From: a virus
Taxonomy: Duplodnaviria; Caudoviricetes
DNA length: 64,000 bases
Strand: one strand, 5' to 3'
Virus record (IMG/VR): IMGVR_UViG_2974598881_000001
Coordinates: 12,269-76,268 of that record
A program made the translations under genes and the position numbers. The notes beneath the pieces are model-generated. The model saw nothing but the letters and a program-made list of their open reading frames with translations, had not been told where the DNA came from and did no database searches. The first letter of the stretch is position 1. Each line of letters begins with the position of its first letter. Of the stretch, positions 213 to 46,848 are shown piece by piece.

Positions 213-285
213 TGGCATATAGCTCAATCGGCAGAGCTTCCGACTGTTAATCGGATGGTTACAGGTTCAAGTCCTGTTATGCCAG
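213..285 (+). tRNA. trnN: tRNA-Asn (GTT)
   Basis: Acceptor tggcata/tatgcca, D arm agctc..gagc, anticodon stem tccga/tcgga with GTT, T arm acagg-ttcaagt-cctgt, discriminator G; CCA not encoded. Confidence 0.95.
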
Positions 286-333
286 CTTAACAACTGAATA
301 CATGTCAACTAAGACCAGTGAAAGGGTCAAACA

Positions 334-918
334 ATGACGCAGGCAGCTTACGAGCAGGACACCAGCGACTTCGACGGTCGCCCCGAGGCGGAGCGCGCCA
401 ACCAGCGCGCCGTGGCGGCGGGCGAGCGCATCGAGGACCGGCAGTTCGTGGACTACTTCGCCACGCCGCAGCCGACGCGCTACTACCTGCCCGACGGTGT
501 GCAGTACTTCGACTACGTCGAGCTCCGCGAGGGCGGCAAGGCGCAGTACGAGAAGGCCACCAACAAGGACATCCGCGTCCAGCGCTCGACCGGTGATGCG
601 CGCCTGTCGGTGGACCCCGCCGTGCAGCGTCAGACGCTCGTTCGCCTCTCGGTGGTGGACGCCTACCTCCTCGAGTCGGACGGTCACGGCGGCTCGCGGC
701 GCATCCCGTTCAACGCCGACCGGCCCGGCAAGTTCTGGGAGAACCTGTTCAACTTCTTCCCGGCGAAGATCGTGGAGGACCTGAACCAGGAGATCATCAA
801 GGCCAACTCCTGGCTCGCCGCCGACGACGACGTCGAGGCCCTCAAGGAGGAGCGCGAGCGCCTCGACGAGCGCATCGAGCGCGCGGAGGAGGAGCAGGCA
901 AAAAAGATCTCCTCCTAG
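334..918 (+). CDS. Tail assembly chaperone (short form)
   Basis: 194 aa between the major tail and TMP genes; slippery A AAA AAG near its 3' end. Confidence 0.9.
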   Translation: MTQAAYEQDTSDFDGRPEAERANQRAVAAGERIEDRQFVDYFATPQPTRYYLPDGVQYFDYVELREGGKAQYEKATNKDIRVQRSTGDARLSVDPAVQRQTLVRLSVVDAYLLESDGHGGSRRIPFNADRPGKFWENLFNFFPAKIVEDLNQEIIKANSWLAADDDVEALKEERERLDERIERAEEEQAKKISS

Positions 919-1288: not shown

Positions 1289-4200
1289 TTGAACTCGGCA
1301 GCGACGAACATTCTCATCACCGCGCAGGCAGCGCAGGCGGTCGCAACTCTTAACCGCGTTCAGGCCCAGCTTCGTGCCCTTCAGATCGCTGCCCGCACTG
1401 CGCAGACCTCGTCGAACGGTAGCTGGTTCGGCACGATGGCCGCAGGCCAGGGGCGCATCACCGCGACTCAGGCCTCTCTTCGAGGATTCATCGCCTCGAC
1501 CAACACAGCGAACGCTGCCAGTAATAGGCCGTGGTTCGCGTCGATGACAGCTGCCGGTTCCAGGCTACAGTGGATCGGCAAGCAGCTCACAATGAACTTC
1601 ACGGCACCACTCTTGCTTGCGGCGGGAGCGGGTGTCAAGTTTGGCTTGGACATGGAGAAGTCCATGACCAGGCTGAAGAAGGTCTACGGCGATGGCTCGA
1701 TGAGCGCCAAGCAGCAGACCAACGAGGTCAAGGCGCTCGAGAAGGCGATGATCGCCCTTTCGGACACCTACGGTGTAGCCTCGGATGAGGTTGCCAATGT
1801 CGCCGCCGACTGGGCGGCTGCGGGTAGCTCGGGCAAGGCGCTTGCCGAGCAGACCAAGCTCACCCTCGAGACGATGATTCTCGGCGAGATGGACGCCGAG
1901 GAGGCTACCAAGTCTCTGATCGCCATTCAGGCTCAGTGGGGCGCGGTCACCGAGACCACCTCCGACAAGCTGGATAAGAATGGCAAGGTTATCCAGAAGG
2001 TTGCCAACGACAAGCTGAGTCTCACTACTATTCTTCGCCAGCTCAACGCGGTGGAGAACGAGACCGGCACCTCGATGCAGGACCTCGTTACCGCGTTCAG
2101 CAAGGCGTCGGGCGTTGCTCGCACTGTTGGTCTCGACACCGCCCACCTTGCCGCGATGGTGGCAGCGCTTGTTCCCGCAGCGGGCAGTGCAACCGAGGCC
2201 GGTAACGGCCTCAAGACGATGCTCACTCGCGTCATGAACCCGACCAGGGCTACCCGTCAGGTTCTCGATGCGATGGGCATTTCGCTCTCGGACGCGGGCT
2301 GGCAGAGTGCAAACGCCGCACAGCGTCTTGAGATGTTGTCTGAGAAGTTCGGTGGCCTGACTCAGGCCCAGAAGATCCAGGCGTCCGCGTTGGTCGCCTC
2401 GGTGTGGCAGATTAACAAGTTCGAAGTCCTTATGGACTCGATGCGCAACAAGATGGGCTACTACCACAAGTCGCTCGCCTTGCTTGCGGATCAGGACCGC
2501 GTGGCGATGATCGCTCAGCGAGAGCTTAACGCGGTCCTCGAATCGAGCCCGCAGCGTGCAAAGCAGGCTGGCGCTATCATCAAGAACTCCTTGATGAAGG
2601 CTATGGAGCCACTGATCCCTGTTATCATTCAGGTGGCGCTGTGGTTCGGCAAGCTGTTCCGAGCCTTCTCGGAGATTTCGCCTTCGGTGCGATCCCTGAT
2701 TGTTGTCATTCTTCTTGTGATGGCAGCACTTGGCCCCATGATTATCATGATGGGCCTCCTTAAGCTTTCGATCGGCCAGCTTGCACCGATCTTTGCGGTT
2801 CTCGGTCGAGCTATTCTGCTCCCGCTAGCTCCGCTCAAGCTCCTCTCGATCGCGTTCTGGGCGAGCATGATTCGCTCGACCGTCGCTGCAAAGGCCCTGC
2901 TCGGCGTCATTGCGGTTGGCAAGGTCTTCGCGATTGGCATGACTTCGGTTGCAGCCATTACGGTTGGCGCGTGGCGCCTTCTCTACATGGCTGTAGCATC
3001 TAACGCACTCAAGACTGCGGCCGTCTGGGTTTCGACTACCGGCATGATGATGCTGGCCAGCTTCCGCCTTCAGGCCTCGCTGATCGCGGCGGCGCTTATT
3101 CTTAAGGCTCGCCTTCTCGTAATCAACGCCTCGATGTGGATTATGATGGTGGCCGCTAACGCGAGCTACTACGCTCGTATGCTGGCTATGAACGCCATGT
3201 TCTACACCGGCATGGTTTTTGCCATCTTGGTAGCCAAGGCTAAGATTATCGCTGCAACAATCGCGACATGGGCCACCACTACGGCCATCACCGCCGCAGG
3301 GATTGTCCGAAACTTGGGACTCTGGGCACTGTTCTCGCGCGGAGTCGGTCTCATCTGGGCCGGTATGCGCGCCGTCGCTGCAGCGGGTGCGGCCGCAATG
3401 GTGACTATCCAGACCGCGATGGCAGCGGCCTCACTCGTCGTGCAGAAGGCATGGGCCGTCGCCACCCTGGTTACTTCGGCAGCCATGTGGAAGGGGCTCA
3501 TCGCCCTCGCCCTGGGCGGCTCGCGAGGTATCGTTACGGTTGTCGCTCGAGCTGGCGCAATGCTGCTGGCAGTTCTGGCGTCGCCTTGGGCGCTCGCAAT
3601 CGGAGTCGTTGTTGGCCTGATTGTGATGTTCCGAACGCAGATTGTACAGGCGTTCAACAACATCGTCAACTACTTCAAGAACCTCCCTGCCGAGACTGCC
3701 AAGGGTCTTTCGCCTTTGACAAACATCTTCGTCAAGGCAAAGAACGCAGTCGTCAACGCTTTCAATGCGCTTCCGGCGGGCGTGAAGAACGCCCTACTTG
3801 CAGTCGTGCGCATCGTTCGCGCGGCGGCTATGAAGGTGTACGAGCTGTTCTCGTACATCAACCCGTTTGCTCGCCACTCTCCCTCGTTGGTCGAGAACGT
3901 TACTAACGGTATGGCCGAGGTGAACAGGCAGTTCACCAACTCTGCGGCTGTTGCCAAGCGCTCGATCAACGAGATGCACGCCTCGGTCAAGAGCCTCGAG
4001 GGCATGGGCAAGGGGCTTGCCGCTGCCAACGCACAGGCCGACCGAGACAAGGTTGCGAGTAACGCTGGCAAGGCTGGCGTCGGCAACGCGATGCCCGAGT
4101 ATGATCGACTGAACGCTCAGGTCAAGGCTTCCAAGGCTGAGCTCGCTAGCATGAACGCTGCTATCGAAGCACAGGAGGCCAAGCTCAAGTCTGTCAAGGC

Positions 4201-7200
4201 TGGCGTCGAGGCGTACGACGCTGCGCTCGAGAAGATGAACAGTGAGCTCGCGACCACCGAGTCCATCCAGCAGGACGTCTCCCGCGCCCTGGATGCCGCT
4301 AAGGCACGCTATGACCGCTTTGCCAACGCTCAGATCAAGGGCATGGGCGCGGCGGAAGATGCTATCTTCGCTAACACGATGGCGCAGAAGCGACTGCAGC
4401 TTCAGATCAAGAAGATGGAGCAGGAGTCCGGCGGCGTCGACAGCCTGACCGACTCGTACTCCAAGCTTCAGGGCTCGATCGAAGAGCTGACCGCTAAGCA
4501 GAAGGAACTGCGCGAAGGTGGCGCAGGGTCTGACGTGCTTGGCGAGTACGACAAGATGATCGCCGAGCTCAAGGCTCAGCAGGGCGGCATCATGGACGGT
4601 CAGCTCGACGGTCCCGCCGGAAAGCTCAAGGAGCTTAACGACCAGCTTCAGCAGCTTCAGAACCAGGCCGAGATCATGGACCTGGAGAAGTCGCTTCAGT
4701 TCGACTCGCTGAACCGTAACATCGAGAAGTTCAAGAACAACGTCGAAGAGCTTCCGTACGGCCAGATCATGCAGGGGATGGACTCCTCTCGCACCTCGGT
4801 TAATAATCTTCAGTACGCTTACGACAGCTTGGGTATCGTGATCGACGGCCAGAAGGCCAAGATTGCCGACACCCAGGCTGCTCGTGATGCGCTTCAGAAG
4901 ACCTACGACGCCGAGAACACCAAGCTCGAGAAGGTCAAGGAGACCTACCAGGAGCTTGAGGAGGCTATCCGCTCGGGCGAGCAGGCGATGCAGGACTTCG
5001 CCTCGCAGGCCGAACAGGCCGTGCAGCGCCAGGAGGAAGCCGCAGCCGCAGCCGAGAAGGCCGCAAAGGCTGGCAAGAAGGGCAAGGGCGGCGGCGGAGG
5101 CGACGACACCTCGAATGCGCTTCAGAACTTCGAGGATGCTGGCGCGGGCGACTTCCCGACCTTCGGCGGCAAGGATACCATCGGTCGCGAGGGCGGTCTT
5201 GGTGATCAGTCTTCGCAGATTGACCAGTTCACCAAGAGCCTCACCGAGGGGCTCGAGACCAGCCTCGGTGGGCTGAACCCGTTCGCACCCCTCATGAAGT
5301 GGTGGGACAACACGGTCAACTGGTTCAAGGGTATGATGGGGCCGTTCGGCGACATCTTCTCAGGAATCGGCGAGGGTATTCGAGTCGCGTTCGGTTCGGA
5401 CGACACCGGCGCGGTAAGCGGCTTCGGTCAGACGATTCAGACAGTCAAGGATTCGCTCAGCGGATTCTGGGACACGCTCAAGACTATCGGTAGCCTTATC
5501 GGTGGTCTATTTGGCCCTGACCTTATGACTTCGGTTTCTGAGTTCGGCAAGGGCTTTGCAGACATCTGGGGCAAGATCTCCGGCCCACTTAAGGATCTCG
5601 GCGCCGAGGTCATGCCGTTCATCAAGGCGGCATTTGAGGCACTTGTTCCCGTCATTGGCATTTTTGTTGGCGCCCTGGAGATCATCTGGGAAGTTATCAA
5701 CGGAGCTATCGGACCCGTCTTCAACTGGCTGGGCGACATCATTAAGTCGATCATCCAGGTTATCACTGGTGTTGTTAAGATTATCACGGGCGTCATCAAT
5801 GTTGTGGTCGGTCTTGTTAAGACTGTCATTGGCGTTATCAAGGGTATCTTCACTGGAGACTGGAGTACCGCAATCGAAGGGCTGAAGCAGCTCTTCTCTG
5901 ATGGATTTGGCAAGATCTTCAGCGGAATCTGGGATATTGTCAAGGGCATCTTTGGTGCCATCTGGTCTACGATCAAGAACTTTGTTTCCCTTATTATTAA
6001 CACCATCTGGGGATTCATCAAGGGTGTTATTGACTTCTTCACCGAGCTTTGGGACGTGCTCGTTGGACACTCGATTGTTCCTGATATGGTCAACGCGATC
6101 ATCGAGTGGTTCTTCAAGCTGCCCGGCACACTGCTTGGAATGATTGGCGACTTTATTGTCGCTATTGTTACGTTCTTCTTCGAGCTCCCCGGAAAGATTC
6201 TCGGAGCACTTGGTGAACTCGGCGGTCTACTTGGAGAGTGGCTCGGCAAGGCGTGGACTTGGCTCAAGGATAACGCCCCCGGCTTGGCCGAAGGCTTCAT
6301 GCAGTGGGTGCGTGATTTCCCCGAGAACTTCATGACCGGTCTCGGCGTGTTGGGTGACAAGATCGGCCCTTGGTTTGGCAAGGCTTGGGATTGGCTTAAG
6401 GACAATGCGCCTAATCTAATCCTTGGCTTCCTCACCTGGGTGGCCGGTATTCCCGGCTTCATCTTGGAGAAGCTCGGCCAGCCTGCCGGTATGCTTCTCC
6501 AGTACGGCAAGGATATGATCCAGGGTCTGCTTGACGGCGCTGGCTCCTTGCTCAAGGACATCGGCAAGTTCATGCTCGACAAGCTGCCGGGATGGATCAA
6601 GGAGCCCTTCAAGAAGGCGATGGGGATCGCGTCCCCCTCGAAGGTTTTTAAGGGCTACGGCAAGAACCTCGGCGAGGGTCTCGTCATCGGCATGGACGGC
6701 CAGCAGAAGGCCGTGGAGGATTCCTCCAAGGCTCTCGCGGCGGCTGCCGACACCGGGCCTATCGACATCAGTGCCGCTCCCGATACTTCGAGCGTGACCG
6801 GGGCGATGAATGCCGTAGCGAAGCAGGCAGCCGCCGCGCCCGCAGCAACGGCCACTATCGACGCGCAGGCGGGCGCGGTCGCCGCCGCCGACCCGTCGCA
6901 GCTCAACCTTGACTCCACGACTGCGGAGCTCGACGCATTCATCGCAGACTCGACCGCCAAGTTGGACGCATTCAACGCGCAGGTGACCGGCAGTATGGTC
7001 GCGATGGCCGAGGCTATCGCTGCAGCGTTCAAGGCTATTGAGACCTCGGCCTCCACCTCGTTCACTGCACTCGCGGGAACCGGTGTTAGCCAGTTCACGA
7101 CGATGCAGACGACTTTGGTTGCCATCGTCACCAAGATGGTCGCCGACATCGCGGCTCAGCTGCAGTCGCTGTTGGAGCAGGTTAAGGCGTTCACTACTCA

Positions 7201-10018
7201 GTTCGCCGCCGCGTGGCAGGCGCTGTGGGACAGCTGGAGCACCAAGAGTGTCGAGGGTGTGGACAAGACCCTGACCGAGTGGGAGCGCCTCGCCGAGGGA
7301 CTGAATAACACGGTCGAGACTGGCATCAAGCCAGTGTTCGATAGCTTGGCCGAGATGCTCAAGCAGACCGAGGAAGGCTTCACCAAGTCTGTCGAGAATA
7401 TCGGCACGGCTTGGGGTGGCCTCAAGGAGGGCACCGCCGCTCCGGTTCGCTTCACTGTGAACACGGTCTACAACGAGGGTCTTCTCGCAACTTGGAATGG
7501 TGTCGCCGACCTCATTGGCGGCAACAAGATGAGCCCAATCTCGCTCAAGTTCCGCGACGGTGGTCCAGTGCGCGGCCCTGGCACGGAGACCAGCGACTCG
7601 ATCCCTGCGCTGCTGTCGAAGAACGAGTACGTGCTCAGTGCCGACGCTGTTCGCCGCGCTGGTGGCGTGGGCAACCTGAACAAGTTCAACTTCAGCAGCA
7701 CCTCGCCGCAGGGTATGTTCGGGATCGGCGGTCGTGGTCAGGTTATCCGTCGTGCAACAGGTGGCCCCGCCGACCCCGGCTCGCCTTCGCATGAGGCGCT
7801 TCAGCGTGGCTACCTGTACGCTCGCAAGATCGCGCCCGGTCCTTATGTTCTTGGTGGCAGCTCGGGCGGCTCGAGCGCCAATGGCACTGACTGCTCTGGT
7901 TACCAGTCGGAGATCGCAGACGTCATCATGGGCGGCCCCGGTGGCGCTCGCAAGTGGGCTACCGGCTCGTTCCCCGGAGGCGGTGGATCGCAGGGTGCTG
8001 TTGTCCGTATCGGCAACCAGACTTGGCTCAAGGGCCTTGGCGCTGGCCACTCGGTTGGCATCTCGGTCCCCCACGCGGCGGGCACACTGGGCGGCGTCCC
8101 TGGCCTCCCGGCGATAAACGTTGAGTCCGGCGGCGGAACCGGCCAGGGCGCTACGTTCGGCGGGCGTGCAACCGGCGCTGACGATCGCCAGTTCCCGACT
8201 CAGTACCACCTTGCTATTCTAGACTCGGCGTTCGTGTCGGGCGGTGGTGGCAGTGGTGCCTCGATGAAGGAAATTCTTGGCGGCATGGTCAAGCCTGGCC
8301 TCGACAAGATGATGCAGCAGGCAAGCGACTACAGCGCTAACGCCAAGGGCTTCAACGGTCAGATTCCGAAGTTGGTTGCCGCTAAGTGGAACGAGACCAC
8401 CCTCAAGAAGATCGAGGCAGAGTCCGCAAAGCTTGACGTTAGTGGCCCCGCCGCGGTTGGTGGCGTCGAGAGCGTCGAGCGCTGGCGCCCGATGGCGACC
8501 GCGGCCCTCAAGCGTAACGGGTTCTTGGGCGACAAGCGCGATCAGGACCTCATGCTCAAGCAGATCATGACCGAGTCGGGTGGCCGACCTGGTGTTCTGC
8601 AGACTGTTCAGGACGTCAACTCGGGTGGCAACGAGGCGCAGGGTCTTCTTCAGATTGTGCCCGGCACCTTCGCGGCCTACCGAGACCAGACGCTTCCGAA
8701 CGATCGCACCGACCCCTGGGCGAATATGAACGCCGCTCTGCGGTACTACAAGGATCGCTACGGCAATGACCTCGGTACACACTGGGGCAAGGGCTTCGGC
8801 TATGACAACGGCGGCTTCTTGCAGCCCGGTATTATCGGCAACTTCACCGGCGGCGTTGAGCCTGTTCTGACTTCGCAGCAGTGGAACGCTATGTACACCA
8901 TCGCTGCAAACGCGCCTCGACTGAATCAGCTGACCATGCAGGAGGCGGTTGAGCGCGCCAACGAGGAGACTGGCAACACCGACAAGAAGCAGACCGAAGC
9001 CATCATCAAGGGCATGGAGGTTTGGCAGGAGGCCTGGAAGCCGCTAGTCTTTGATGCGACCGAGAAGTCCACCAAGGCTACCGAGTCTATGACCAAGGCG
9101 GCGACTGCTCAGACTGGTTCTACGCAGATTCTCACCAAGAGCATCGGCAAGTGGGACACCACAGTCAAGGAGCTGTCGAAGGCGCTGACACAGTTCTCGC
9201 AGTCGATGCAGCAGTCCATCCAGGTTCAGCAGGGCGGCGGAAGCGGCGGAAGCAGCTTCGGAACCATTAATCTCGGTGGAGTCAACGGTGGAGGTGGCGG
9301 ATCGGGCGCTAACGCTGGCGGGTTCAGCATGAAGGCTCCCACCTTCGGCGCCTGGGCTCCGATGCTCAATGTTATGGCCGACCTCCTCGAGGCCCTGCCG
9401 TATGCAGAGCGTAACTGGACTGCAGATAATCCGGTTCCTGGCGAGACAGAGAAGCAGCGCAAGCAGCGTATCGCGGCGAACAATCTCACGAACTTTGCCA
9501 AGGGTAGTTACAACGTTGTTAAGGACGTTGGCCCTCCCGTTCTGCGTCACACGGCTATCATCGGCAGTGCTGTCGAGAAGCTTGTGTACGAAGATGGCGA
9601 AGCCTGGAGTGCGGCGTTCGCGGCTATCGCCCAAAACAACCCTGCGGGTTACGCTATCGCAGTGTTGCTGGGTATTAAAACAGTCGCTACGCTCGCGCCT
9701 CTGATCCTCGCTGCAATCATGGATATTGTGCCCGCGCTAATCCGTGCTATTGTTAGGTTCCTAACCCAGTTCATGCCTGATTCGGTGTTCGCTTACGCCG
9801 ATTTGGCAGCCGCAGAGAACGCAGTACTGGAGCAGCAGGAGGGTGGCGAGGTCGCACAAGGCCAGGGCCGACGTTACCCGACTGAGGCAATGGTTAGCCC
9901 GAGCGGTAACGCTCCTGTCAACCTCTTTATCTACGGAGACCTCGAGATGCCGAATGTTAGTGATGGAAGCGACGCAAATGAGTTCGTCGACCAGCTCCGA
10001 CTGTTGGCGAGCAAGTAA
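1289..10018 (+). CDS. Tape measure protein with NlpC/P60-like and SLT transglycosylase domains
   Basis: 2909 aa; N-terminal TMP domain, coiled coil and W/F-periodic repeats; DCSG (Cys ~7892) and PHAAG (His ~8072); TESGG...AQGLLQIVPGTF SLT motif at ~8570-8670. Confidence 0.97.
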   Translation: MNSAATNILITAQAAQAVATLNRVQAQLRALQIAARTAQTSSNGSWFGTMAAGQGRITATQASLRGFIASTNTANAASNRPWFASMTAAGSRLQWIGKQLTMNFTAPLLLAAGAGVKFGLDMEKSMTRLKKVYGDGSMSAKQQTNEVKALEKAMIALSDTYGVASDEVANVAADWAAAGSSGKALAEQTKLTLETMILGEMDAEEATKSLIAIQAQWGAVTETTSDKLDKNGKVIQKVANDKLSLTTILRQLNAVENETGTSMQDLVTAFSKASGVARTVGLDTAHLAAMVAALVPAAGSATEAGNGLKTMLTRVMNPTRATRQVLDAMGISLSDAGWQSANAAQRLEMLSEKFGGLTQAQKIQASALVASVWQINKFEVLMDSMRNKMGYYHKSLALLADQDRVAMIAQRELNAVLESSPQRAKQAGAIIKNSLMKAMEPLIPVIIQVALWFGKLFRAFSEISPSVRSLIVVILLVMAALGPMIIMMGLLKLSIGQLAPIFAVLGRAILLPLAPLKLLSIAFWASMIRSTVAAKALLGVIAVGKVFAIGMTSVAAITVGAWRLLYMAVASNALKTAAVWVSTTGMMMLASFRLQASLIAAALILKARLLVINASMWIMMVAANASYYARMLAMNAMFYTGMVFAILVAKAKIIAATIATWATTTAITAAGIVRNLGLWALFSRGVGLIWAGMRAVAAAGAAAMVTIQTAMAAASLVVQKAWAVATLVTSAAMWKGLIALALGGSRGIVTVVARAGAMLLAVLASPWALAIGVVVGLIVMFRTQIVQAFNNIVNYFKNLPAETAKGLSPLTNIFVKAKNAVVNAFNALPAGVKNALLAVVRIVRAAAMKVYELFSYINPFARHSPSLVENVTNGMAEVNRQFTNSAAVAKRSINEMHASVKSLEGMGKGLAAANAQADRDKVASNAGKAGVGNAMPEYDRLNAQVKASKAELASMNAAIEAQEAKLKSVKAGVEAYDAALEKMNSELATTESIQQDVSRALDAAKARYDRFANAQIKGMGAAEDAIFANTMAQKRLQLQIKKMEQESGGVDSLTDSYSKLQGSIEELTAKQKELREGGAGSDVLGEYDKMIAELKAQQGGIMDGQLDGPAGKLKELNDQLQQLQNQAEIMDLEKSLQFDSLNRNIEKFKNNVEELPYGQIMQGMDSSRTSVNNLQYAYDSLGIVIDGQKAKIADTQAARDALQKTYDAENTKLEKVKETYQELEEAIRSGEQAMQDFASQAEQAVQRQEEAAAAAEKAAKAGKKGKGGGGGDDTSNALQNFEDAGAGDFPTFGGKDTIGREGGLGDQSSQIDQFTKSLTEGLETSLGGLNPFAPLMKWWDNTVNWFKGMMGPFGDIFSGIGEGIRVAFGSDDTGAVSGFGQTIQTVKDSLSGFWDTLKTIGSLIGGLFGPDLMTSVSEFGKGFADIWGKISGPLKDLGAEVMPFIKAAFEALVPVIGIFVGALEIIWEVINGAIGPVFNWLGDIIKSIIQVITGVVKIITGVINVVVGLVKTVIGVIKGIFTGDWSTAIEGLKQLFSDGFGKIFSGIWDIVKGIFGAIWSTIKNFVSLIINTIWGFIKGVIDFFTELWDVLVGHSIVPDMVNAIIEWFFKLPGTLLGMIGDFIVAIVTFFFELPGKILGALGELGGLLGEWLGKAWTWLKDNAPGLAEGFMQWVRDFPENFMTGLGVLGDKIGPWFGKAWDWLKDNAPNLILGFLTWVAGIPGFILEKLGQPAGMLLQYGKDMIQGLLDGAGSLLKDIGKFMLDKLPGWIKEPFKKAMGIASPSKVFKGYGKNLGEGLVIGMDGQQKAVEDSSKALAAAADTGPIDISAAPDTSSVTGAMNAVAKQAAAAPAATATIDAQAGAVAAADPSQLNLDSTTAELDAFIADSTAKLDAFNAQVTGSMVAMAEAIAAAFKAIETSASTSFTALAGTGVSQFTTMQTTLVAIVTKMVADIAAQLQSLLEQVKAFTTQFAAAWQALWDSWSTKSVEGVDKTLTEWERLAEGLNNTVETGIKPVFDSLAEMLKQTEEGFTKSVENIGTAWGGLKEGTAAPVRFTVNTVYNEGLLATWNGVADLIGGNKMSPISLKFRDGGPVRGPGTETSDSIPALLSKNEYVLSADAVRRAGGVGNLNKFNFSSTSPQGMFGIGGRGQVIRRATGGPADPGSPSHEALQRGYLYARKIAPGPYVLGGSSGGSSANGTDCSGYQSEIADVIMGGPGGARKWATGSFPGGGGSQGAVVRIGNQTWLKGLGAGHSVGISVPHAAGTLGGVPGLPAINVESGGGTGQGATFGGRATGADDRQFPTQYHLAILDSAFVSGGGGSGASMKEILGGMVKPGLDKMMQQASDYSANAKGFNGQIPKLVAAKWNETTLKKIEAESAKLDVSGPAAVGGVESVERWRPMATAALKRNGFLGDKRDQDLMLKQIMTESGGRPGVLQTVQDVNSGGNEAQGLLQIVPGTFAAYRDQTLPNDRTDPWANMNAALRYYKDRYGNDLGTHWGKGFGYDNGGFLQPGIIGNFTGGVEPVLTSQQWNAMYTIAANAPRLNQLTMQEAVERANEETGNTDKKQTEAIIKGMEVWQEAWKPLVFDATEKSTKATESMTKAATAQTGSTQILTKSIGKWDTTVKELSKALTQFSQSMQQSIQVQQGGGSGGSSFGTINLGGVNGGGGGSGANAGGFSMKAPTFGAWAPMLNVMADLLEALPYAERNWTADNPVPGETEKQRKQRIAANNLTNFAKGSYNVVKDVGPPVLRHTAIIGSAVEKLVYEDGEAWSAAFAAIAQNNPAGYAIAVLLGIKTVATLAPLILAAIMDIVPALIRAIVRFLTQFMPDSVFAYADLAAAENAVLEQQEGGEVAQGQGRRYPTEAMVSPSGNAPVNLFIYGDLEMPNVSDGSDANEFVDQLRLLASK

Positions 10019-24152: not shown

Positions 24153-24377
24153 TCACTTACTCCTCTTGAGTAGCTTCTTGGCTCGGCGCTGATCCTTCGC
24201 GTCCATCTCGGCGTATGACCACCACTGATAACTACGAGCTACGAACACAGAATCGCACTTATCGCACCTCCAGAATGTTCCCTCCCGGAATTGGGGGACC
24301 ATCGTGACCCCGGCAATCGGAGGGGAACAGTCTGCGCACTTGCTTGGCACGGGTCCTAGCTCGAGAACACTCATCAC
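24153..24377 (-). CDS. Small zinc-ribbon protein
   Basis: CADC...CDKC. Confidence 0.6.
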   Translation of the reverse strand: MMSVLELGPVPSKCADCSPPIAGVTMVPQFREGTFWRCDKCDSVFVARSYQWWSYAEMDAKDQRRAKKLLKRSK

Positions 24378-25570
24378 TTCATCCTCTTGGTGATCTTCGG
24401 CTTCGGCTCCGAGATGGACTCCTTGACGGACGAGCGCAACAACGACTTCTGTGAAGGCGTCAGGGCTGCACCCTTGAGAAGCTTCTCAACCTCGGCGTTG
24501 GTCACCTTGTCCATCTGAGCAAAGATGGCAGGCCCCACGATCTCCCGCACCTTGGACGGGTCGTAAGACTTCCGCCTCGAAGACTTAAACTCAACGTTAT
24601 AGTCCTCAGTGTCATAGTTAATCTCGTCGGTGTCCATTGCATCTTTGAGCATCTCTTCGACGACCTCGTCAATGGCGTAACGGATCGCCTTCGACGCGCC
24701 CTCCAGTTCGTATAGACGCTTAGCCATCTCGTTGCGGTCGCCCTGAATCGCCATGATGCCGCCAGCGTCGACATTCTTGGTTACAAGCGGGCAGGTGGAC
24801 TTGGCTACGCAGAACTGGCACTCGGGGTTGAGTGAGCGCTTGCCGGGGTCAGGCTCGGCGATGATGCGCTCTGCAACTCGCCGAACATAACGCCAGGTCT
24901 CGACGTTGTCGTCTCGAGTGAGGCGAACCTCTGCCGCGTCGTACCGGAGCTGATCGAAACTAACCCAGATCTCGTCGGGGCTAAGCTCCTCGCCGAGCTC
25001 GGCTGCGAGCTCCTTGAACGCGAGCTGGATCGCCATTCCGTAGAGACGAGCCTGCGGCTTCTCGCGAAGGGTCGCGGACGTGAGAACCTGTCGCCAGGTC
25101 TTGTAGTCCACGACGCGGATGATGACCTTACCGTTCTCCTCGAACCGGTCGAGCCGGTCGAAGATGAAGGTGTAAGGCACCTCGCCAATGGAGGTCTTGA
25201 TCGGCACGCGGATCTTCTTCTCCACCATGAGCACCTCGACGTCATCGAGGTTGGTGCGCGCATACCACCGCTCGAGCATGTCCAGACCGTCCGCGTACCA
25301 CTTGTTCTTGGGGTCAGGAAGCGTCTGGAACTGCTTCATGAACTCCTGCTTGAAGTATGCGACGATCCGGCTCCACAGAAACTCGCCGGTCTTCTCGACA
25401 TAAACCTCGGTGACGATGCGCTCGAGGGTGTCGTGCACCGCAGAGCCGAGCTTTGCCGGGTCACTGCTACCATCGGGCGACGGCGTACGCTGCACGTTCT
25501 CGAGGAAGTACCGGTGCGAGCATCCCTCGAACGTCTGGAGGGACGATGCGGAAATCGTCGTAAGCTTCAT
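24374..25570 (-). CDS. Cas4/RecB/AddB-like PD-(D/E)xK exonuclease
   Basis: SASSLQTFEGC, LGSAVH, VEKK, IFDRLD, VVDYKT, QARLYG, CQFC-x5-C Fe-S staple. Confidence 0.9.
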   Translation of the reverse strand: MKLTTISASSLQTFEGCSHRYFLENVQRTPSPDGSSDPAKLGSAVHDTLERIVTEVYVEKTGEFLWSRIVAYFKQEFMKQFQTLPDPKNKWYADGLDMLERWYARTNLDDVEVLMVEKKIRVPIKTSIGEVPYTFIFDRLDRFEENGKVIIRVVDYKTWRQVLTSATLREKPQARLYGMAIQLAFKELAAELGEELSPDEIWVSFDQLRYDAAEVRLTRDDNVETWRYVRRVAERIIAEPDPGKRSLNPECQFCVAKSTCPLVTKNVDAGGIMAIQGDRNEMAKRLYELEGASKAIRYAIDEVVEEMLKDAMDTDEINYDTEDYNVEFKSSRRKSYDPSKVREIVGPAIFAQMDKVTNAEVEKLLKGAALTPSQKSLLRSSVKESISEPKPKITKRMK

Positions 25571-25788
25571 TTTTTCTTTGGCCCCCTCGGAGTAGATTTG
25601 CCGCCCCAGATACCATCTGTCGAGCTGGTGCGTTCTCGGTAGTCACTGCACTGCCGGGCGACCGGACACTGCATACAGATCTTCTTGGCCTCGTTTGCGC
25701 GGGCAGACTGCCCCCGGCCAGGGAAGAAGGCGTCTGGGTCGTGATACCCTACACAGAGGGCTTGACGGGTCCACTCTTCGGGCTCGAT
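25567..25788 (-). CDS. whiB: WhiB-family transcription factor (no canonical start; absent from the ORF track)
   Basis: IEPEEWTRQALC-VGYHDPDAFFPG...AKKICMQCPVARQC...DGIWGGKSTPRGPKKK*; 4 Cys and GIWGG; stop overlaps the nuclease ATG (ATGA). The start shown (ATC at 25788) is only a candidate. Confidence 0.9.
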   Translation of the reverse strand: MEPEEWTRQALCVGYHDPDAFFPGRGQSARANEAKKICMQCPVARQCSDYRERTSSTDGIWGGKSTPRGPKKK

Positions 25789-26174
25789 GTGGAAGGTCGC
25801 GTGGGAGCCGACGGTGCCTGCGGCTTGCTCTCCTTCTCCGCAGACGCATTCGTCTCCAACGTCTTGCTGGGGTCGGACTCCGTCTGCACCTGATCGAACA
25901 GCGAGGGATCGGCAGATGCCTGTGCACCTAAAGGGGCGCGGCCACCACGGGCCTCCAGCTCGAAGGCGGTCTGCGGCTCGCCGGTACCGAAGAGCTCGTC
26001 GGCGTCCGACTTGGCATCTGCCTCGGCACGCTGCTCACTGGTGAAGGCGGTCTGCTGCATGTGCTGCTGGAATGCAGTCTGCTCTGGGGCAATGGGGCGG
26101 AAGTCGGTGTAGTTCACCTCGCCGACGCTTTTGATCGGATTGAGCTCGTACGGTCCTGCAGGCTTGTCTGCCAT
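25749..26174 (-). CDS. Hypothetical acidic protein overlapping the WhiB frame
   Basis: 141 aa, AGGAG RBS, high GC3 until ~25815. Confidence 0.75.
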   Translation of the reverse strand: MADKPAGPYELNPIKSVGEVNYTDFRPIAPEQTAFQQHMQQTAFTSEQRAEADAKSDADELFGTGEPQTAFELEARGGRAPLGAQASADPSLFDQVQTESDPSKTLETNASAEKESKPQAPSAPTRPSTSSPKSGPVKPSV

Positions 26175-26241
26175 CTTTGTTCTCCTACGATTGTGTTTGA
26201 CCTATCCGTGCGATAGGTTATCACGGTTTGTGTGGTTCGTG

Positions 26242-38475: not shown

Positions 38476-39315
38476 TCAGAAGGGAGGCGGGGGAACCGCA
38501 TCGCCGAAGTCTTTAGGGTTAAACTTGTGCTGTTCGCACTCGATGCACTTGCCGGTCAGTGCGAGGCACATCCGGTCTACCGTGAGCGGATCGAGGATCG
38601 AGTACGCCTTCTCGCAGTCACGGCAGAAGATGTCTGCGCCAGCGCCGAGGTCCACGATCTCGTCAACCGAACTCACGAACGCCTGCTCGATAACCTCGAG
38701 CGGTATCTGGTAAGACCAGGGGAACTCGCCGATGTTGACAACGAACAGGCCATTCTCTGACTTGTTATTGACAGTGATGGTTGCCTCAACCAGGCCGACA
38801 ATCTTGACGGTCTGCGCGTCCTCGTCTACCTCGGCACGCATTCGAGCGTACCAGATGTTGGCGATCTTGTTGTTCGCGTCGTCGATCTCCGCCAGAAGGG
38901 GAAACTCGAAGTAGGCTTCGGTGTGAATGAGTACTGCGAACAGGGTCTCCTGCATGATCTTCCACTCGGCGTGAGGCCGAGCCCCATTCGTATTCACGAA
39001 CGGGCGGAACACAGGCACCTTGCCGTAGCTGTTATCTACGTCCGAGTCGAGCAGAACGTACAGACCGTTTGCCTGCGGGTTGGCCTTGGTTGTGATCCTG
39101 GCCCTGAAGCCGCTTGCCAGCTCAACATCCCAGCCGCGCGGCGGCTCGTCATGCGTAGAACACAAACCAAGCAACTCGTCGTACAGGTCATACGAGTCGA
39201 TAAGTTCCCAGGCTGCAGCAGGCTCGCGCCAGCGATTATGTCGCCCCAGCTCAATCAAAGGGGGAGCTGTCATCTTGCTGATCCACTCGCCCTGCTTCTG
39301 AATCATTGAGTCCAT
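38476..39315 (-). CDS. Hypothetical protein (may extend to 39753)
   Basis: C-terminal CRDC...C...CIEC and PPPPF; the upstream in-frame extension looks coding (see findings). Confidence 0.6.
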   Translation of the reverse strand: MDSMIQKQGEWISKMTAPPLIELGRHNRWREPAAAWELIDSYDLYDELLGLCSTHDEPPRGWDVELASGFRARITTKANPQANGLYVLLDSDVDNSYGKVPVFRPFVNTNGARPHAEWKIMQETLFAVLIHTEAYFEFPLLAEIDDANNKIANIWYARMRAEVDEDAQTVKIVGLVEATITVNNKSENGLFVVNIGEFPWSYQIPLEVIEQAFVSSVDEIVDLGAGADIFCRDCEKAYSILDPLTVDRMCLALTGKCIECEQHKFNPKDFGDAVPPPPF

Positions 39316-39871
39316 CCTCACCCCCTTCTGAGCCGAGACAGTTCTGTAGCCGACCGGTGACAGCGGGCGTAATAACTTCAGCGAATCGCTTTCGGCCTCC
39401 TCTTGAGAGGATGCCTTCGTGTGCAAAGGCCCGAATAGCCCGGTGTAAGGCTGTGTCTTCATCTGACCGCCCTTGCCGCCGCTCCCCCCGGCGATTCCCG
39501 CGAACGTTCCCGGAACCTGTTGCATGAGGCCTCTGGCGCCGCCCCCGCTCACGATCATCTCGCCCGGCTGAACCGTCGCCTTGACCGCTCTGGTGAGTGA
39601 TTTCCGGAGATCGTCCTTGGTCAGCTGCTCCAGCTGCTCGTGAATCTTGGTTCCCGAGATTGCTGTGTCCTTGATCCAGTCGGGGCGGCCGCTTGCGGGG
39701 GCCTCGCGGCTTTCGCTCTGGCCACTCGAGCGCTTCTTCCTTCGGCTTGTCATCCTTCTTCACCTCCTTCTTTGCAGGGGTCTTGCGCACCTTCTTGGGC
39801 TTCGCTGCCGTCTCGCATGTGCACGGGAACTCGTCACAGAACATGCACGGCTCGGGGGGCTTAGCGGCCAT
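39251..39871 (-). CDS. Cys/Lys-rich hypothetical protein overlapping the next frame
   Basis: MAAKPPEPCMFCDEFPCTC, TAATG-coupled start; central part looks like a shadow of the +1 frame. Confidence 0.5.
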   Translation of the reverse strand: MAAKPPEPCMFCDEFPCTCETAAKPKKVRKTPAKKEVKKDDKPKEEALEWPERKPRGPRKRPPRLDQGHSNLGNQDSRAAGAADQGRSPEITHQSGQGDGSAGRDDRERGRRQRPHATGSGNVRGNRRGERRQGRSDEDTALHRAIRAFAHEGILSRGGRKRFAEVITPAVTGRLQNCLGSEGGEDGLNDSEAGRVDQQDDSSPFD

Positions 39872-44860: not shown

Positions 44861-44938
44861 TCACCTCCTATCGAGCCAACTTATGAACGCGATGAGTCCC
44901 AGCAGGGACACGAACGAAAGGGCCTCGGGCCAAGTCAC
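44861..44938 (-). CDS. 25-aa membrane peptide
   Basis: MTWPEALSFVSLLGLIAFISWLDRR; GTGA overlap. Confidence 0.5.
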   Translation of the reverse strand: MTWPEALSFVSLLGLIAFISWLDRR

Positions 44939-46845
44939 AGCAACCTCTTTCCCAGGTGTTCGACCACCTTCCGGTAATCCTCGGGACCGTCCACCTGGAA
45001 GGTGTCGAAGCCGTGCTCCTTCGGCGAGTCGACCCCCATTCCCACAGCCATGAGAGTGATGTTGTTCTTCCGAGCGTACTCGATCTCCGACTTCAGAACA
45101 CGCAGTTCCTCGTCGTAGTTCGAGGCGGGCATAGCTCCATCGGTGTAGTACATGACGATCTTCTCGGTCGCCTTGGACTGCTCGGCACGCTTGCGGTAGA
45201 ACTGCAGCGTGTGTCCGTCCAGGTTGCCCATGCTCGAGTTGATGGTGCGCAGGTTGTTGCGCGCCTTCTTGTCCCACGGCTTGTTCGCCGCCTTGATCTC
45301 GTAAAAGGCGGGCGACTCGTCGCCGGTCGAGTAGCTGTAGTCCGAGGTATGTGCCCACACCTCAAACGAGATACCGAGTCGGTGACACACGTCAGACATG
45401 GCCAGGACCGCCATCTTCTCCACCTCGATAGTGTCGCCCGAGGTTGAGCCTGATATGTCCATGCCGATCACAACGTGATAGCTACGCTTGTCGGGCACAA
45501 CACGCTTCGAGAACAGGCGCTCGTCGCCGAACGGTACCCGGCGCGCGAGCATCTTCCCTGCAACCTTGCCGCTCCGCTGGTTCCGGTGATGCTCTACACG
45601 AGCGTTCACGCCGAAGGCCAACCGAGCCGCCGTGATAGCAGGGCTCAAGTGACGCTCGTCCGACTTGAACAGGTGCTCGGGGTATGGCTGGTTGTAGTAG
45701 TTGTTCTTGTACGCAGGCTGACCGGGTTCGGGGATGTAGATCTTCGGCGCGCCGACGTTCTCGGGAACGTGATCGAGCATCTTGTACGAGTCGACAGCGT
45801 TCTGAACATCTTCGGGACGAAGACCCTCGGTAGCCGGTCCGTCGTCGCCCTTGCCTGAGCCCATTCCGCGCTTGCCGTCGTCCTTGTCACTGATCTCAGT
45901 GCCGTGACCGAACAAGATCTTCATGAGCTTGTTGATCAGCTCGAACAGCTCGTCGTTCTTCTCTTCCTCGTCTGGGTCAACGATCATGTAGCCGTTCTCG
46001 TTCATGATCGTCAGCACCGCGAGAACCACCTCGAATGAGGCGACGGTGTCGGACGCCTCGAGGGCGTCCTTGCCGCACCGCTTGAGCTTAGCATCCCCGG
46101 TTACGAAGTCAACCACTTCGTCAACAAAGAATCCGTCGATCTCAATTCCGTTAGCCGTGAACAGGAATGCGAGCGCGAGCTGCATCTCGATCTTCATGTC
46201 CTCGTAGTAGGTAACCGTACCGTCCTGGTTGGAGATACCGTTCACCATGATGTCTTCGCTCAGCGCCCGGTAGGCGAGCTCCTCGTCGTGGTCGAAGGCC
46301 AACCGAGCCGCGTCACACCGCGCATCTTCCATGCACAGCATGAGCATACTCAGCCAAGGGTGGCGCGCCTTGTTGACGTGCCCGATGAGCGGGATGTTCG
46401 TGCCCTCCACGTTGAGGTGGTCCTGCATCCTGCGGACGAAGGCCTGCGGTAGGCTGTACGGGTCGCCCGGTGTGCCGCAGTCCATGAGCAGCGACACCGT
46501 ACGCCCGACGCTGAACCGGGCAAACGAACCGTGCACGATGTGCCCAATCTCGTGCTTGAGTACCGTCATGACGTGCTCGCGGGACGCGCACGCGGGGCAC
46601 AGCAGAAGGCCGAACTCGCGCTCATCGCACAGCGCTCGGTTGTGACGCTGTGGCAACCCGAGCTCCATCGGCGGGGCAATCGTGATCGTCTTGCCGTCGG
46701 TCTGACTGTTAGCACCGGCGACAATCTTGAGCCCCTGTACTCCGGTCTCGGATCGAGCGTAGGACTGAAGTGCGGGAATCATCGTGTTGAACCTGCGGAC
46801 CGCCTTAGCGGCGAGCTGCCTGCGCTTGCGCGTAGTCGCGTCCAT
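44935..46845 (-). CDS. CobT-like vWA-domain protein with N-terminal HExxH
   Basis: LKHEIGH, MEDARCD; MIDAS DISGST...TS...YTDG. Confidence 0.85.
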   Translation of the reverse strand: MDATTRKRRQLAAKAVRRFNTMIPALQSYARSETGVQGLKIVAGANSQTDGKTITIAPPMELGLPQRHNRALCDEREFGLLLCPACASREHVMTVLKHEIGHIVHGSFARFSVGRTVSLLMDCGTPGDPYSLPQAFVRRMQDHLNVEGTNIPLIGHVNKARHPWLSMLMLCMEDARCDAARLAFDHDEELAYRALSEDIMVNGISNQDGTVTYYEDMKIEMQLALAFLFTANGIEIDGFFVDEVVDFVTGDAKLKRCGKDALEASDTVASFEVVLAVLTIMNENGYMIVDPDEEEKNDELFELINKLMKILFGHGTEISDKDDGKRGMGSGKGDDGPATEGLRPEDVQNAVDSYKMLDHVPENVGAPKIYIPEPGQPAYKNNYYNQPYPEHLFKSDERHLSPAITAARLAFGVNARVEHHRNQRSGKVAGKMLARRVPFGDERLFSKRVVPDKRSYHVVIGMDISGSTSGDTIEVEKMAVLAMSDVCHRLGISFEVWAHTSDYSYSTGDESPAFYEIKAANKPWDKKARNNLRTINSSMGNLDGHTLQFYRKRAEQSKATEKIVMYYTDGAMPASNYDEELRVLKSEIEYARKNNITLMAVGMGVDSPKEHGFDTFQVDGPEDYRKVVEHLGKRLL

Positions 46846-46848
46846 TGT

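Follow-up and report, generated by a model that had tools for sequence, protein, structure and literature searches.

In insertion sequences (IS) of the IS3 family, such as IS911 and IS150, -1 programmed ribosomal frameshifting (PRF) joins OrfA to a downstream domain that lacks an independent start codon. The fusion, OrfAB, is active, and unshifted OrfA, which shares its N terminus, can modulate it. The known WhiB-like (Wbl) proteins are, to our knowledge, stand-alone open reading frames (ORFs) of about 65 to 130 amino acids (aa) with their own start codon. Proteins of this group are the commonest regulators encoded by actinobacteriophages (PMC8612146). Those of phages bind region 4 of sigmaA and act by seizing this primary sigma factor of the host (PMC13013590), and they can inhibit growth (PMC10700055). 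Here, we describe a WhiB gene on the minus strand of a 64,000-nucleotide (nt) stretch of DNA, hereafter the window, which covers positions 12,269 to 76,268 of the Caudoviricetes record IMGVR_UViG_2974598881_000001. We propose, with a probability of roughly 0.87, that the WhiB of this phage is made only by a conserved -1 PRF at a slippery heptamer. Comparative evidence from related sequences shows the heptamer itself, the layout of the frames around it, and a switch of the selected frame at the heptamer.

An initial annotation, made from the sequence of the window alone, had placed a complete WhiB domain in the -1 frame of the 141-aa ORF at 26174..25749. This placement holds, as evidenced by a match to PF02467 and by the presence of the four cysteines, the DAFFP and GIWGG motifs, and the basic tail. 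The -1 frame overlaps the 141-aa ORF and, as had been stated, is open from 26034 to 25567 without an ATG, GTG, or TTG before the domain; a scan of the whole open frame found none of these codons before codon 86 after the shift, a Met within the CxxC motif. The stop codon of the WhiB frame does overlap the start codon of the downstream nuclease gene (TGA at 25569-25567, ATG at 25570-25568). The heptamer singled out as the slip site, C CCT TTA at 25935-25929, is in phase with the upstream ORF and includes the rare codon TTA, just as described.

In the mechanism that we propose, ribosomes would initiate at the ATG at 26174 and translate an acidic leader of 82 codons, and a fraction of them would slip back by one base at gcC CCU UUA (25935-25929). 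The P-site tRNA-Pro would re-pair from CCU to CCC, and the A-site tRNA-Leu would re-pair from the rare UUA to UUU. Shifted ribosomes would resume at AGG (25929-25927) and read 120 codons, so the trans-frame fusion would be 82 + 120 = 202 aa long and would contain the leader, a four-Cys module, a WhiB-like [4Fe-4S] domain, and a basic tail. Unshifted ribosomes would give the 141-aa protein, which shares the leader and is predicted to be largely disordered. We infer that the efficiency of the slip keeps the dose of the regulator low and fixes its proportion relative to the leader-only protein. The slip may be promoted by the rarity of the A-site codon (UUA here, AAA in relatives) and perhaps by an upstream GGNGG that resembles a Shine-Dalgarno (SD) sequence.

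The architecture is shared by a large group of phages. In blastn searches, the locus matched Tsukamurella phage TIN2 (85% identity) and 87 Gordonia phage records, and tblastn with the -1 part returned 111 records at a coverage of at least 80%. The comparison was made with 42 distinct members from Tsukamurella, Gordonia, and Rhodococcus phages and from IMG/VR and soil or wastewater metagenome contigs. The phage members come from 22 records that represent about ten genera or singletons, and the contigs were added through DNA-pattern searches. The genera sampled include Tinduovirus, Montyvirus, Woesvirus, Getseptimavirus, Demosthenesvirus, Gordtnkvirus, and Orchidvirus, and the phages ReqiDocB7, Reynauld, Trogglehumper, and Mbo2 were sampled too.

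All 42 members have a leader ORF that starts with ATG or GTG, an in-phase heptamer at the same position, and a -1 ORF that continues into WhiB. Whether relatives conserve the frame offset and CCCTTTA had been proposed as a check. The offset is universal (42/42), and CCCTTTA itself is found in 14 of 42 members (class 1), namely, the clade of the window and Katyusha-type phages; the other 28 carry CCCAAAA (class 2). These are two different canonical slippery sequences at one position. TTA makes up 1.2% of the Leu codons and AAA 7.9% of the Lys codons in the window, and these rare codons are nonetheless fixed in the heptamers of the relatives. In 33 of 42 members, the -1 frame contains no ATG, GTG, or TTG between its upstream stop codon and the essential Trp. 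The -1 frame opens at most 30 nt 5' of the heptamer in 19/42, and in 6/42, a TGA lies immediately 5' of CCC, which means that the -1 frame opens exactly at the heptamer. Translation of the downstream -1 sequence in these six members is therefore possible only by a shift at the heptamer. A site of this kind is also rare by chance: the long ORFs of the window contain 8 in-phase X XXY YYZ heptamers (Y = A or T) in 17,707 codons, and about 0.04 would be expected in a stretch of about 94 codons in which both frames are open. Two of the eight lead to a long -1 ORF, and these are the WhiB site and the site of the tail chaperone gene G/GT.

A version of the gene without the shift was sought in several ways. 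When 1.84 billion representative proteins were searched with a profile built from the entire -1 part, 35,487 WhiB-like matches and no unshifted version were obtained; among the best 150 of these 35,487, none reaches profile positions 1-22, which include the first Cys pair, and the longest N-terminal reach belongs to a 94-aa ORF annotated in Orchid-type phages. A word-based protein search with linker residues 1-60 yielded no candidate. The class-1 DNA pattern had 8 chance matches in 185,579 prokaryote genomes, of which 0 were accompanied by a WhiB, and no prophage or bacterial copy was found among these genomes. A protein-pattern scan of IMG/VR returned mostly unrelated WhiBs. Neither a start codon with an SD sequence just before WhiB, nor a single continuous frame, nor an indel was found in the relatives or in the protein search.

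The frame under selection changes at the heptamer as well. Upstream of it, variation is highest at frame-0 third positions (0.50 versus 0.25 to 0.28), and from the heptamer onward, variation is highest at -1 third positions. For instance, the entropies at -1 positions 1, 2, and 3, summed over the first 6 to 8 codons after the heptamer, are 0.72, 0.88, and 4.09 in class 1 and 3.31, 0.35, and 7.6 in class 2. Substitutions were also counted in seven close pairs. In the leader, 104 of 142 substitutions fall at the frame-0 third position, and the leader is under purifying selection in frame 0. In the WhiB part, 65 of 86 fall at the -1 third position, and in the -1 frame, 67 changes are synonymous versus 19 non-synonymous; because of this strong purifying selection, we conclude that the WhiB part is translated. 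The frame-0 tail (aa 83-141), which is rich in Ser, Pro, Thr, and Ala, is not conserved between clades, and the frame-0 reading of the DNA for the four-Cys module is unconserved too. The initial annotation had put forward a fusion of the leader to WhiB, about 202 aa long and made by a -1 shift, and this idea gains support from the heptamer in 42/42 relatives, the four-Cys module in the -1 frame, and the wobble switch.

Several observations weigh against our proposal. First, no downstream stimulatory RNA structure was detected by consensus or single-sequence folding, neither of which searches for pseudoknots. The RNAalifold consensus of nine class-1 sequences reaches -2.1 kcal/mol, a single-sequence fold for the window has a z score of +0.94 relative to shuffled sequences, and 75-nt folds in 18 genomes have z scores from -1.4 to +1.6. 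The only recurrent hairpin begins within the heptamer and coincides with the CxGxC codons. The possible downstream stem that had been noted at first (25929-25914) also begins inside the heptamer, is energetically no better than shuffled sequence (the z score of +0.94), and is unsupported as a conserved stimulator. Downstream structure is not obligatory at phage sites of the G/GT type.

Second, the candidate upstream stimulator is not shared by all members. GGAGG and GGTGG are present upstream of the heptamer as originally reported (25956-25952 and 25946-25942), and GGNGG lies 6 nt 5' of the heptamer in 14/14 CCCTTTA members and in about half of the CCCAAAA members. The SD-like motif is found in only 29/42 members overall, and it overlaps conserved Gly-Gly codons. 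Third, the DNA pattern used to retrieve some of the class-2 members itself specified the C, G, and C positions, and the entropy and alignment results are partly biased as a result; no such base-fixing pattern was used for the class-1 set or for six of the class-2 phages. Fourth, substitutions within the 180-nt overlap are near balance, with 38 versus 32 at the third positions of the two frames and 20 elsewhere. Finally, the codon usage of the window remains frame-0-like until about 25830. The switch in codon bias near 25830 that had been pointed out is real for this single sequence; in the comparative data, by contrast, it is at the heptamer that the selected frame changes. The codon usage up to about 25830 may reflect a low-efficiency shift, in which most ribosomes stay unshifted, and it leaves room for a later site.

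Two other explanations of the locus were weighed. One is that recoding takes a different route, by a shift farther downstream (at about 25830), by P-site-only slippage on CCC_U at a "hungry" UUA (with Phe rather than Leu inserted), or by transcriptional slippage. The codon usage, which scores as frame 0 until about 25830, and the ambiguous substitution counts in the overlap would be accommodated by a later site; the rare A-site codons UUA and AAA suit the hungry-codon route, and the lack of a detected downstream structure (pseudoknots were outside the search) is compatible with recoding by another route. However, no X XXY YYZ motif or homopolymer run exists between 25928 and 25752 that could host a later shift. 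Moreover, in GordTnk2-type genomes, the -1 frame opens at the heptamer and frame 0 terminates without reaching the CxCGEG motif, and the -1 wobble signature starts at the first codon past the heptamer. P-site-only slippage would use the same site and differ from our proposal by one residue only. Efficient transcriptional slippage needs runs of about 8 to 9 A or T, and both CCCTTTA and CCCAAAA are too short for this. We therefore regard recoding by one of these other routes as very unlikely.

The other explanation, which we hold to be no less improbable, is that a separate, small WhiB is produced by noncanonical initiation, for example, at the ATC at 25788, or by reinitiation or translational coupling, with the upstream -1 sequence left untranslated. 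The initial annotation had described this ATC as the only one in the frame and as lacking an SD sequence. The latter point stands, and the former does not, because the -1 frame has two ATC codons after the heptamer, at codon 5 (25917-25915) and codon 48 (25788). An ATC does lie five codons before the Trp, an ATG or GTG that follows the four-Cys module and precedes the first Fe-S Cys is present in 7/42 relatives and has been used by annotators, and the codon bias of the single sequence prefers the -1 frame only from about 25830. None of the near-cognate codons is conserved, however, and Monty-type phages have no ATC, ATT, ATA, or CTG there. The start codons that do exist are often 3' of the essential Trp of the aromatic patch. 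A separate WhiB would also leave unexplained the invariant CxGxC...CxCGxG located 25 to 50 codons upstream in the -1 frame, the wobble pattern that begins at the heptamer, and the universal in-phase heptamer.

The idea that the frame break is an indel from sequencing or assembly, which had been raised at first, or a recent mutation that turned the WhiB gene into a pseudogene has next to no chance of being correct. In a single genome, the loss of one base at any point of 26034-25780 would look the same, but the offset recurs in 42 distinct sequences that come from metagenomes and independent projects, an assembly indel is excluded because this conservation reaches about 33% protein identity, the 67 synonymous versus 19 non-synonymous changes are not expected of a pseudogene, and no in-frame version was found among the 1.84 billion proteins searched (best 150 of 35,487 matches). 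Initiation at ATC, an indel, and transcriptional slippage were thus all considered and rejected on this evidence.

Under the frameshift that we favor, the shifted product ends in a recognizable WhiB. The domain scores 57.9 bits against Pfam PF02467 (cutoff, 23.6 bits; E = 1.5e-15), and the sequence of the WhiB part matches WhiB chains in the PDB. The ligands of the [4Fe-4S] cluster, C59, C85, C88, and C94 (C...CxxCxxxxxC), are invariant in 35 relatives; the residues of the aromatic patch, W53, F68, F69, and W108, are each either invariant or shared by 90% or more of the sequences; and GIWGG is found at residues 106-110. In WhiB1, this aromatic patch (AP1-4) corresponds to W3, F17, F18, and W60 and is joined by the G[IV]WGG beta-turn (PMC13013590). 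An AlphaFold2 (AF2) model built from 35 sequences has a predicted local distance difference test score (pLDDT) of 84 to 92 over residues 50-110, and its best Foldseek matches are all Wbl chains, namely, 6ONO (WhiB1-sigmaA4; root mean square deviation, 1.2 A; TM score by target, 0.77), 8CWT, and 8DY9. By sequence and predicted fold, the last 70 residues form a genuine Wbl domain. By homology, we infer that the WhiB part would bind region 4 of the host primary sigma factor and redirect transcription.

Between the shift site and this domain lies the four-Cys module CxGxC...CxCGxG. Counted from the shift, C2, G4, C6, C28, C30, and G33 do not vary in any of three alignments, which hold 11, 14, and 35 sequences (33 to 91% identity), and so match the four Fe-S cysteines in conservation; G31 is shared by 90% or more of the 35 sequences. 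The positions of C28, C30, G31, and G33 were imposed by no search pattern. Across the family, CxCGxG follows CxGxC after about 20 to 60 residues. The module is probably a metal site. It is poorly modeled (pLDDT, 46 to 57; AF2 with 35 sequences), and AF2 with only 7 sequences gave no useful model for the -1 part (pLDDT, 44.7). No protein containing the module was found in the databases by word search or among the best 150 of 35,487 profile matches. In six metagenome or IMG/VR members, GCGQG(E/Q)W takes the place of CxCGEG, and extra cysteines (DPCPP...) are present, which suggests metal-site variants within the same frameshifted architecture.

The 141-aa ORF matches PHROG 6890 and no Pfam family. 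It is acidic (isoelectric point [pI], 4.6; pI of the leader part, 4.5), and its Atlas model is disordered (pLDDT, 0.51) and has no usable structural neighbors. The leader carries a DFRP-type motif that is kept across the family and three TAF repeats. The features of the locus are collected in Table 1.

Table 1. Positions of the features at the WhiB locus, given in window coordinates
Feature	Position	Strand	Comment
Shine-Dalgarno sequence AGGAG	26182..26186	(-)	7 nt 5' of the leader-ORF ATG; read from the sequence
Frame-0 ORF, 141 aa, ATG start, TAG stop at 25751-25749	25749..26174	(-)	
Leader common to both predicted products, 82 codons including the heptamer TTA	25929..26174	(-)	
GGAGG	25952..25956	(-)	5' of the heptamer
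GGTGG, SD-like	25942..25946	(-)	6 nt 5' of the heptamer; possible upstream stimulator
Slippery heptamer C CCT TTA (X XXY YYZ)	25929..25935	(-)	In phase with frame 0
-1-frame part, 120 codons (AGG 25929-25927 to AAA 25572-25570) plus TGA 25569-25567	25567..25929	(-)	
Four-Cys module, half 1, CTGIC (CxGxC)	25912..25926	(-)	Codons 2-6 after the shift
Four-Cys module, half 2, CVCGEG (CxCGxG)	25831..25848	(-)	Codons 28-33 after the shift
WhiB-like domain, residues 53-112 of the -1 part	25594..25773	(-)	Pfam PF02467
Basic C-terminal tail STPRGPKKK	25570..25593	(-)	Basic tail in most relatives too
ATGA overlap of the WhiB-frame TGA with the ATG of the PD-(D/E)XK (Cas4-family) exonuclease gene	25567..25570	(-)	
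PD-(D/E)XK/Cas4-type exonuclease gene	25570..24374	(-)	Downstream
35-aa ATG ORF (MQCPV...)	25567..25674	(-)	Inside the WhiB frame

Public records of the relatives do not reflect this arrangement. They show nothing at the position of the gene, a 33-aa "WhiB family transcription factor" that starts at an internal Met, or short ORFs that start past the Trp. The 33-aa ORF (M-x-CPV...) is annotated in the SEA-PHAGES records of John316, Woes, Monty, Jams, and BenoitCattle, and the record of John316 draws it overlapping the Cas4 exonuclease gene. Like its 35-aa counterpart in the window, this ORF retains only one of the four aromatic-patch residues, is without the first Fe-S Cys, and so cannot be a functional Wbl. 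The residues missing from the 33-aa ORF and from the short WhiBs that start after the Trp are needed for sigmaA4 binding and cluster ligation (PMC13013590). The 141-aa leader ORF is labeled "endonuclease" by RefSeq and PHROG 6890 (e.g., NC_028865 gp085 and NC_030924 gp088). This label looks unfounded, considering the lack of a Pfam match, the acidic low-complexity sequence, and the disorder of the predicted structure.

No report of a frameshifted WhiB was found in the literature searched, including a survey of phage WhiBs (PMC8612146), and WhiB is not mentioned in the accessible portion of a 2016 review of recoding (PMC5009743). What is new here is a transcription regulator expressed, on our reading, only through recoding, together with an unannotated, conserved Cys module. 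A lineage of lytic Gordonia, Tsukamurella, and Rhodococcus phages and many uncultivated soil and wastewater phages share this proposed frameshift-only WhiB, and about a hundred public genome records misannotate the gene. As a consequence, surveys of phage Wbls undercount and truncate the family. Few conserved phage frameshifts lie outside tail assembly, and the locus extends their list to a regulatory gene. It also suggests a previously unrecognized extension of the Wbl fold that binds metal. Phages of Gordonia terrae 3612 offer a tractable system in which to relate frameshift efficiency to the dose of a potentially toxic host takeover factor.

A broader and decidedly tentative idea, which we think is unlikely to be right in full, is that the leader, four-Cys module, and WhiB together form a new Wbl class that exists only as a recoding product. 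In such a class, the slip might couple the amount of a sigma-capturing WhiB to the translational state of the host (e.g., the supply of rare tRNAs), the leader-only protein might act on the fusion as OrfA acts on OrfAB, by competition or modulation, and the extra four-Cys site might bind a second metal or cluster for redox or metal sensing. The tRNA genes of the phage bear on the decoding of the heptamer. A tRNA-Asn (GTT) gene at 213-286 (+) is the single tRNA gene found in the window, and no tRNA-Leu(UAA) or tRNA-Lys(UUU) is found among the phage tRNA genes, so decoding of the rare heptamer codons relies on host tRNAs.

The window also holds other candidate slip sites. The phage's own G/GT gene is the ORF at 334..918 (+), which matches the tail assembly chaperone family PHROG 3096 (E = 9.5e-91). 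Its site, A AAA AAG at 900-906, lies 4 codons before the stop codon of that ORF, with GGAGGAGGAG at 885-894, 5 nt 5' of the heptamer. The G/GT -1 frame runs for 91 codons to about 1178, just 5' of the 2,909-aa tape measure ORF (1289..10018). In this phage, a G-rich SD-like tract is found 5 to 6 nt 5' of both the WhiB and G/GT sites. The long ORF at 46848..44935 (-) has an in-phase G GGA AAG 3 codons from its stop codon, in the region 44863-44953, and the -1 frame there adds 28 codons with a hydrophobic stretch that resembles a membrane helix. This site could be due to chance or could be a second frameshift that yields a C-terminal extension. An in-phase C CCT TTG is located at 39256-39262 (-) within the ORF at 39759..38476, and its -1 frame stops after 1 codon, so this site does not connect the two frames.

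Among known systems, the WhiB locus is like the G/GT genes of lambda and actinophages in that an in-phase X XXY YYZ heptamer would give two products with a shared N terminus in a fixed ratio. As far as the accessible portion of the 2016 review goes (PMC5009743), G/GT also resembles the WhiB site in that no strong downstream structure is required and in that the site is conserved by position and not by sequence. The two differ in where the shift falls and what it delivers. The G/GT shift is located close to the 3' end of G, and tail assembly uses both of the products, whereas the WhiB shift is mid-gene, in a regulator of the early/replication module, and the functional domain is predicted in the shifted product only.

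The locus is like IS3-family OrfAB in that the WhiB domain has no start codon of its own and the short, unshifted product shares its N terminus. Unlike IS3, it is not a mobile element or transposase, and IS sites are usually A AAA AAG with a downstream hairpin or pseudoknot; folding at the WhiB site, which did not search for pseudoknots, detected no structure of this kind. It also resembles E. coli dnaX (tau/gamma) and copA, which encodes CopA and CopA(Z), in using -1 PRF of the chromosomal type to obtain two proteins from one mRNA. The same portion of the review describes an upstream SD-like stimulator in dnaX and a small metal-binding protein as the product of -1 PRF in copA (PMC5009743). 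In dnaX and copA, however, the shifted product is truncated, while that of the phage WhiB would be long and would carry the domain.

Finally, the WhiB part is like Mycobacterium tuberculosis WhiB1 (6ONO), WhiB3 (8CWT), and WhiB7 (7KUG), Streptomyces venezuelae WhiB (8DY7), and the WhiB gp49 of mycobacteriophage TM4 in its four cysteines, its W/FF/W patch, and its G[IV]WGG motif. It stands apart from these known Wbls by its 82-aa leader, its extra invariant four-Cys module, and the recoding that its synthesis would require.

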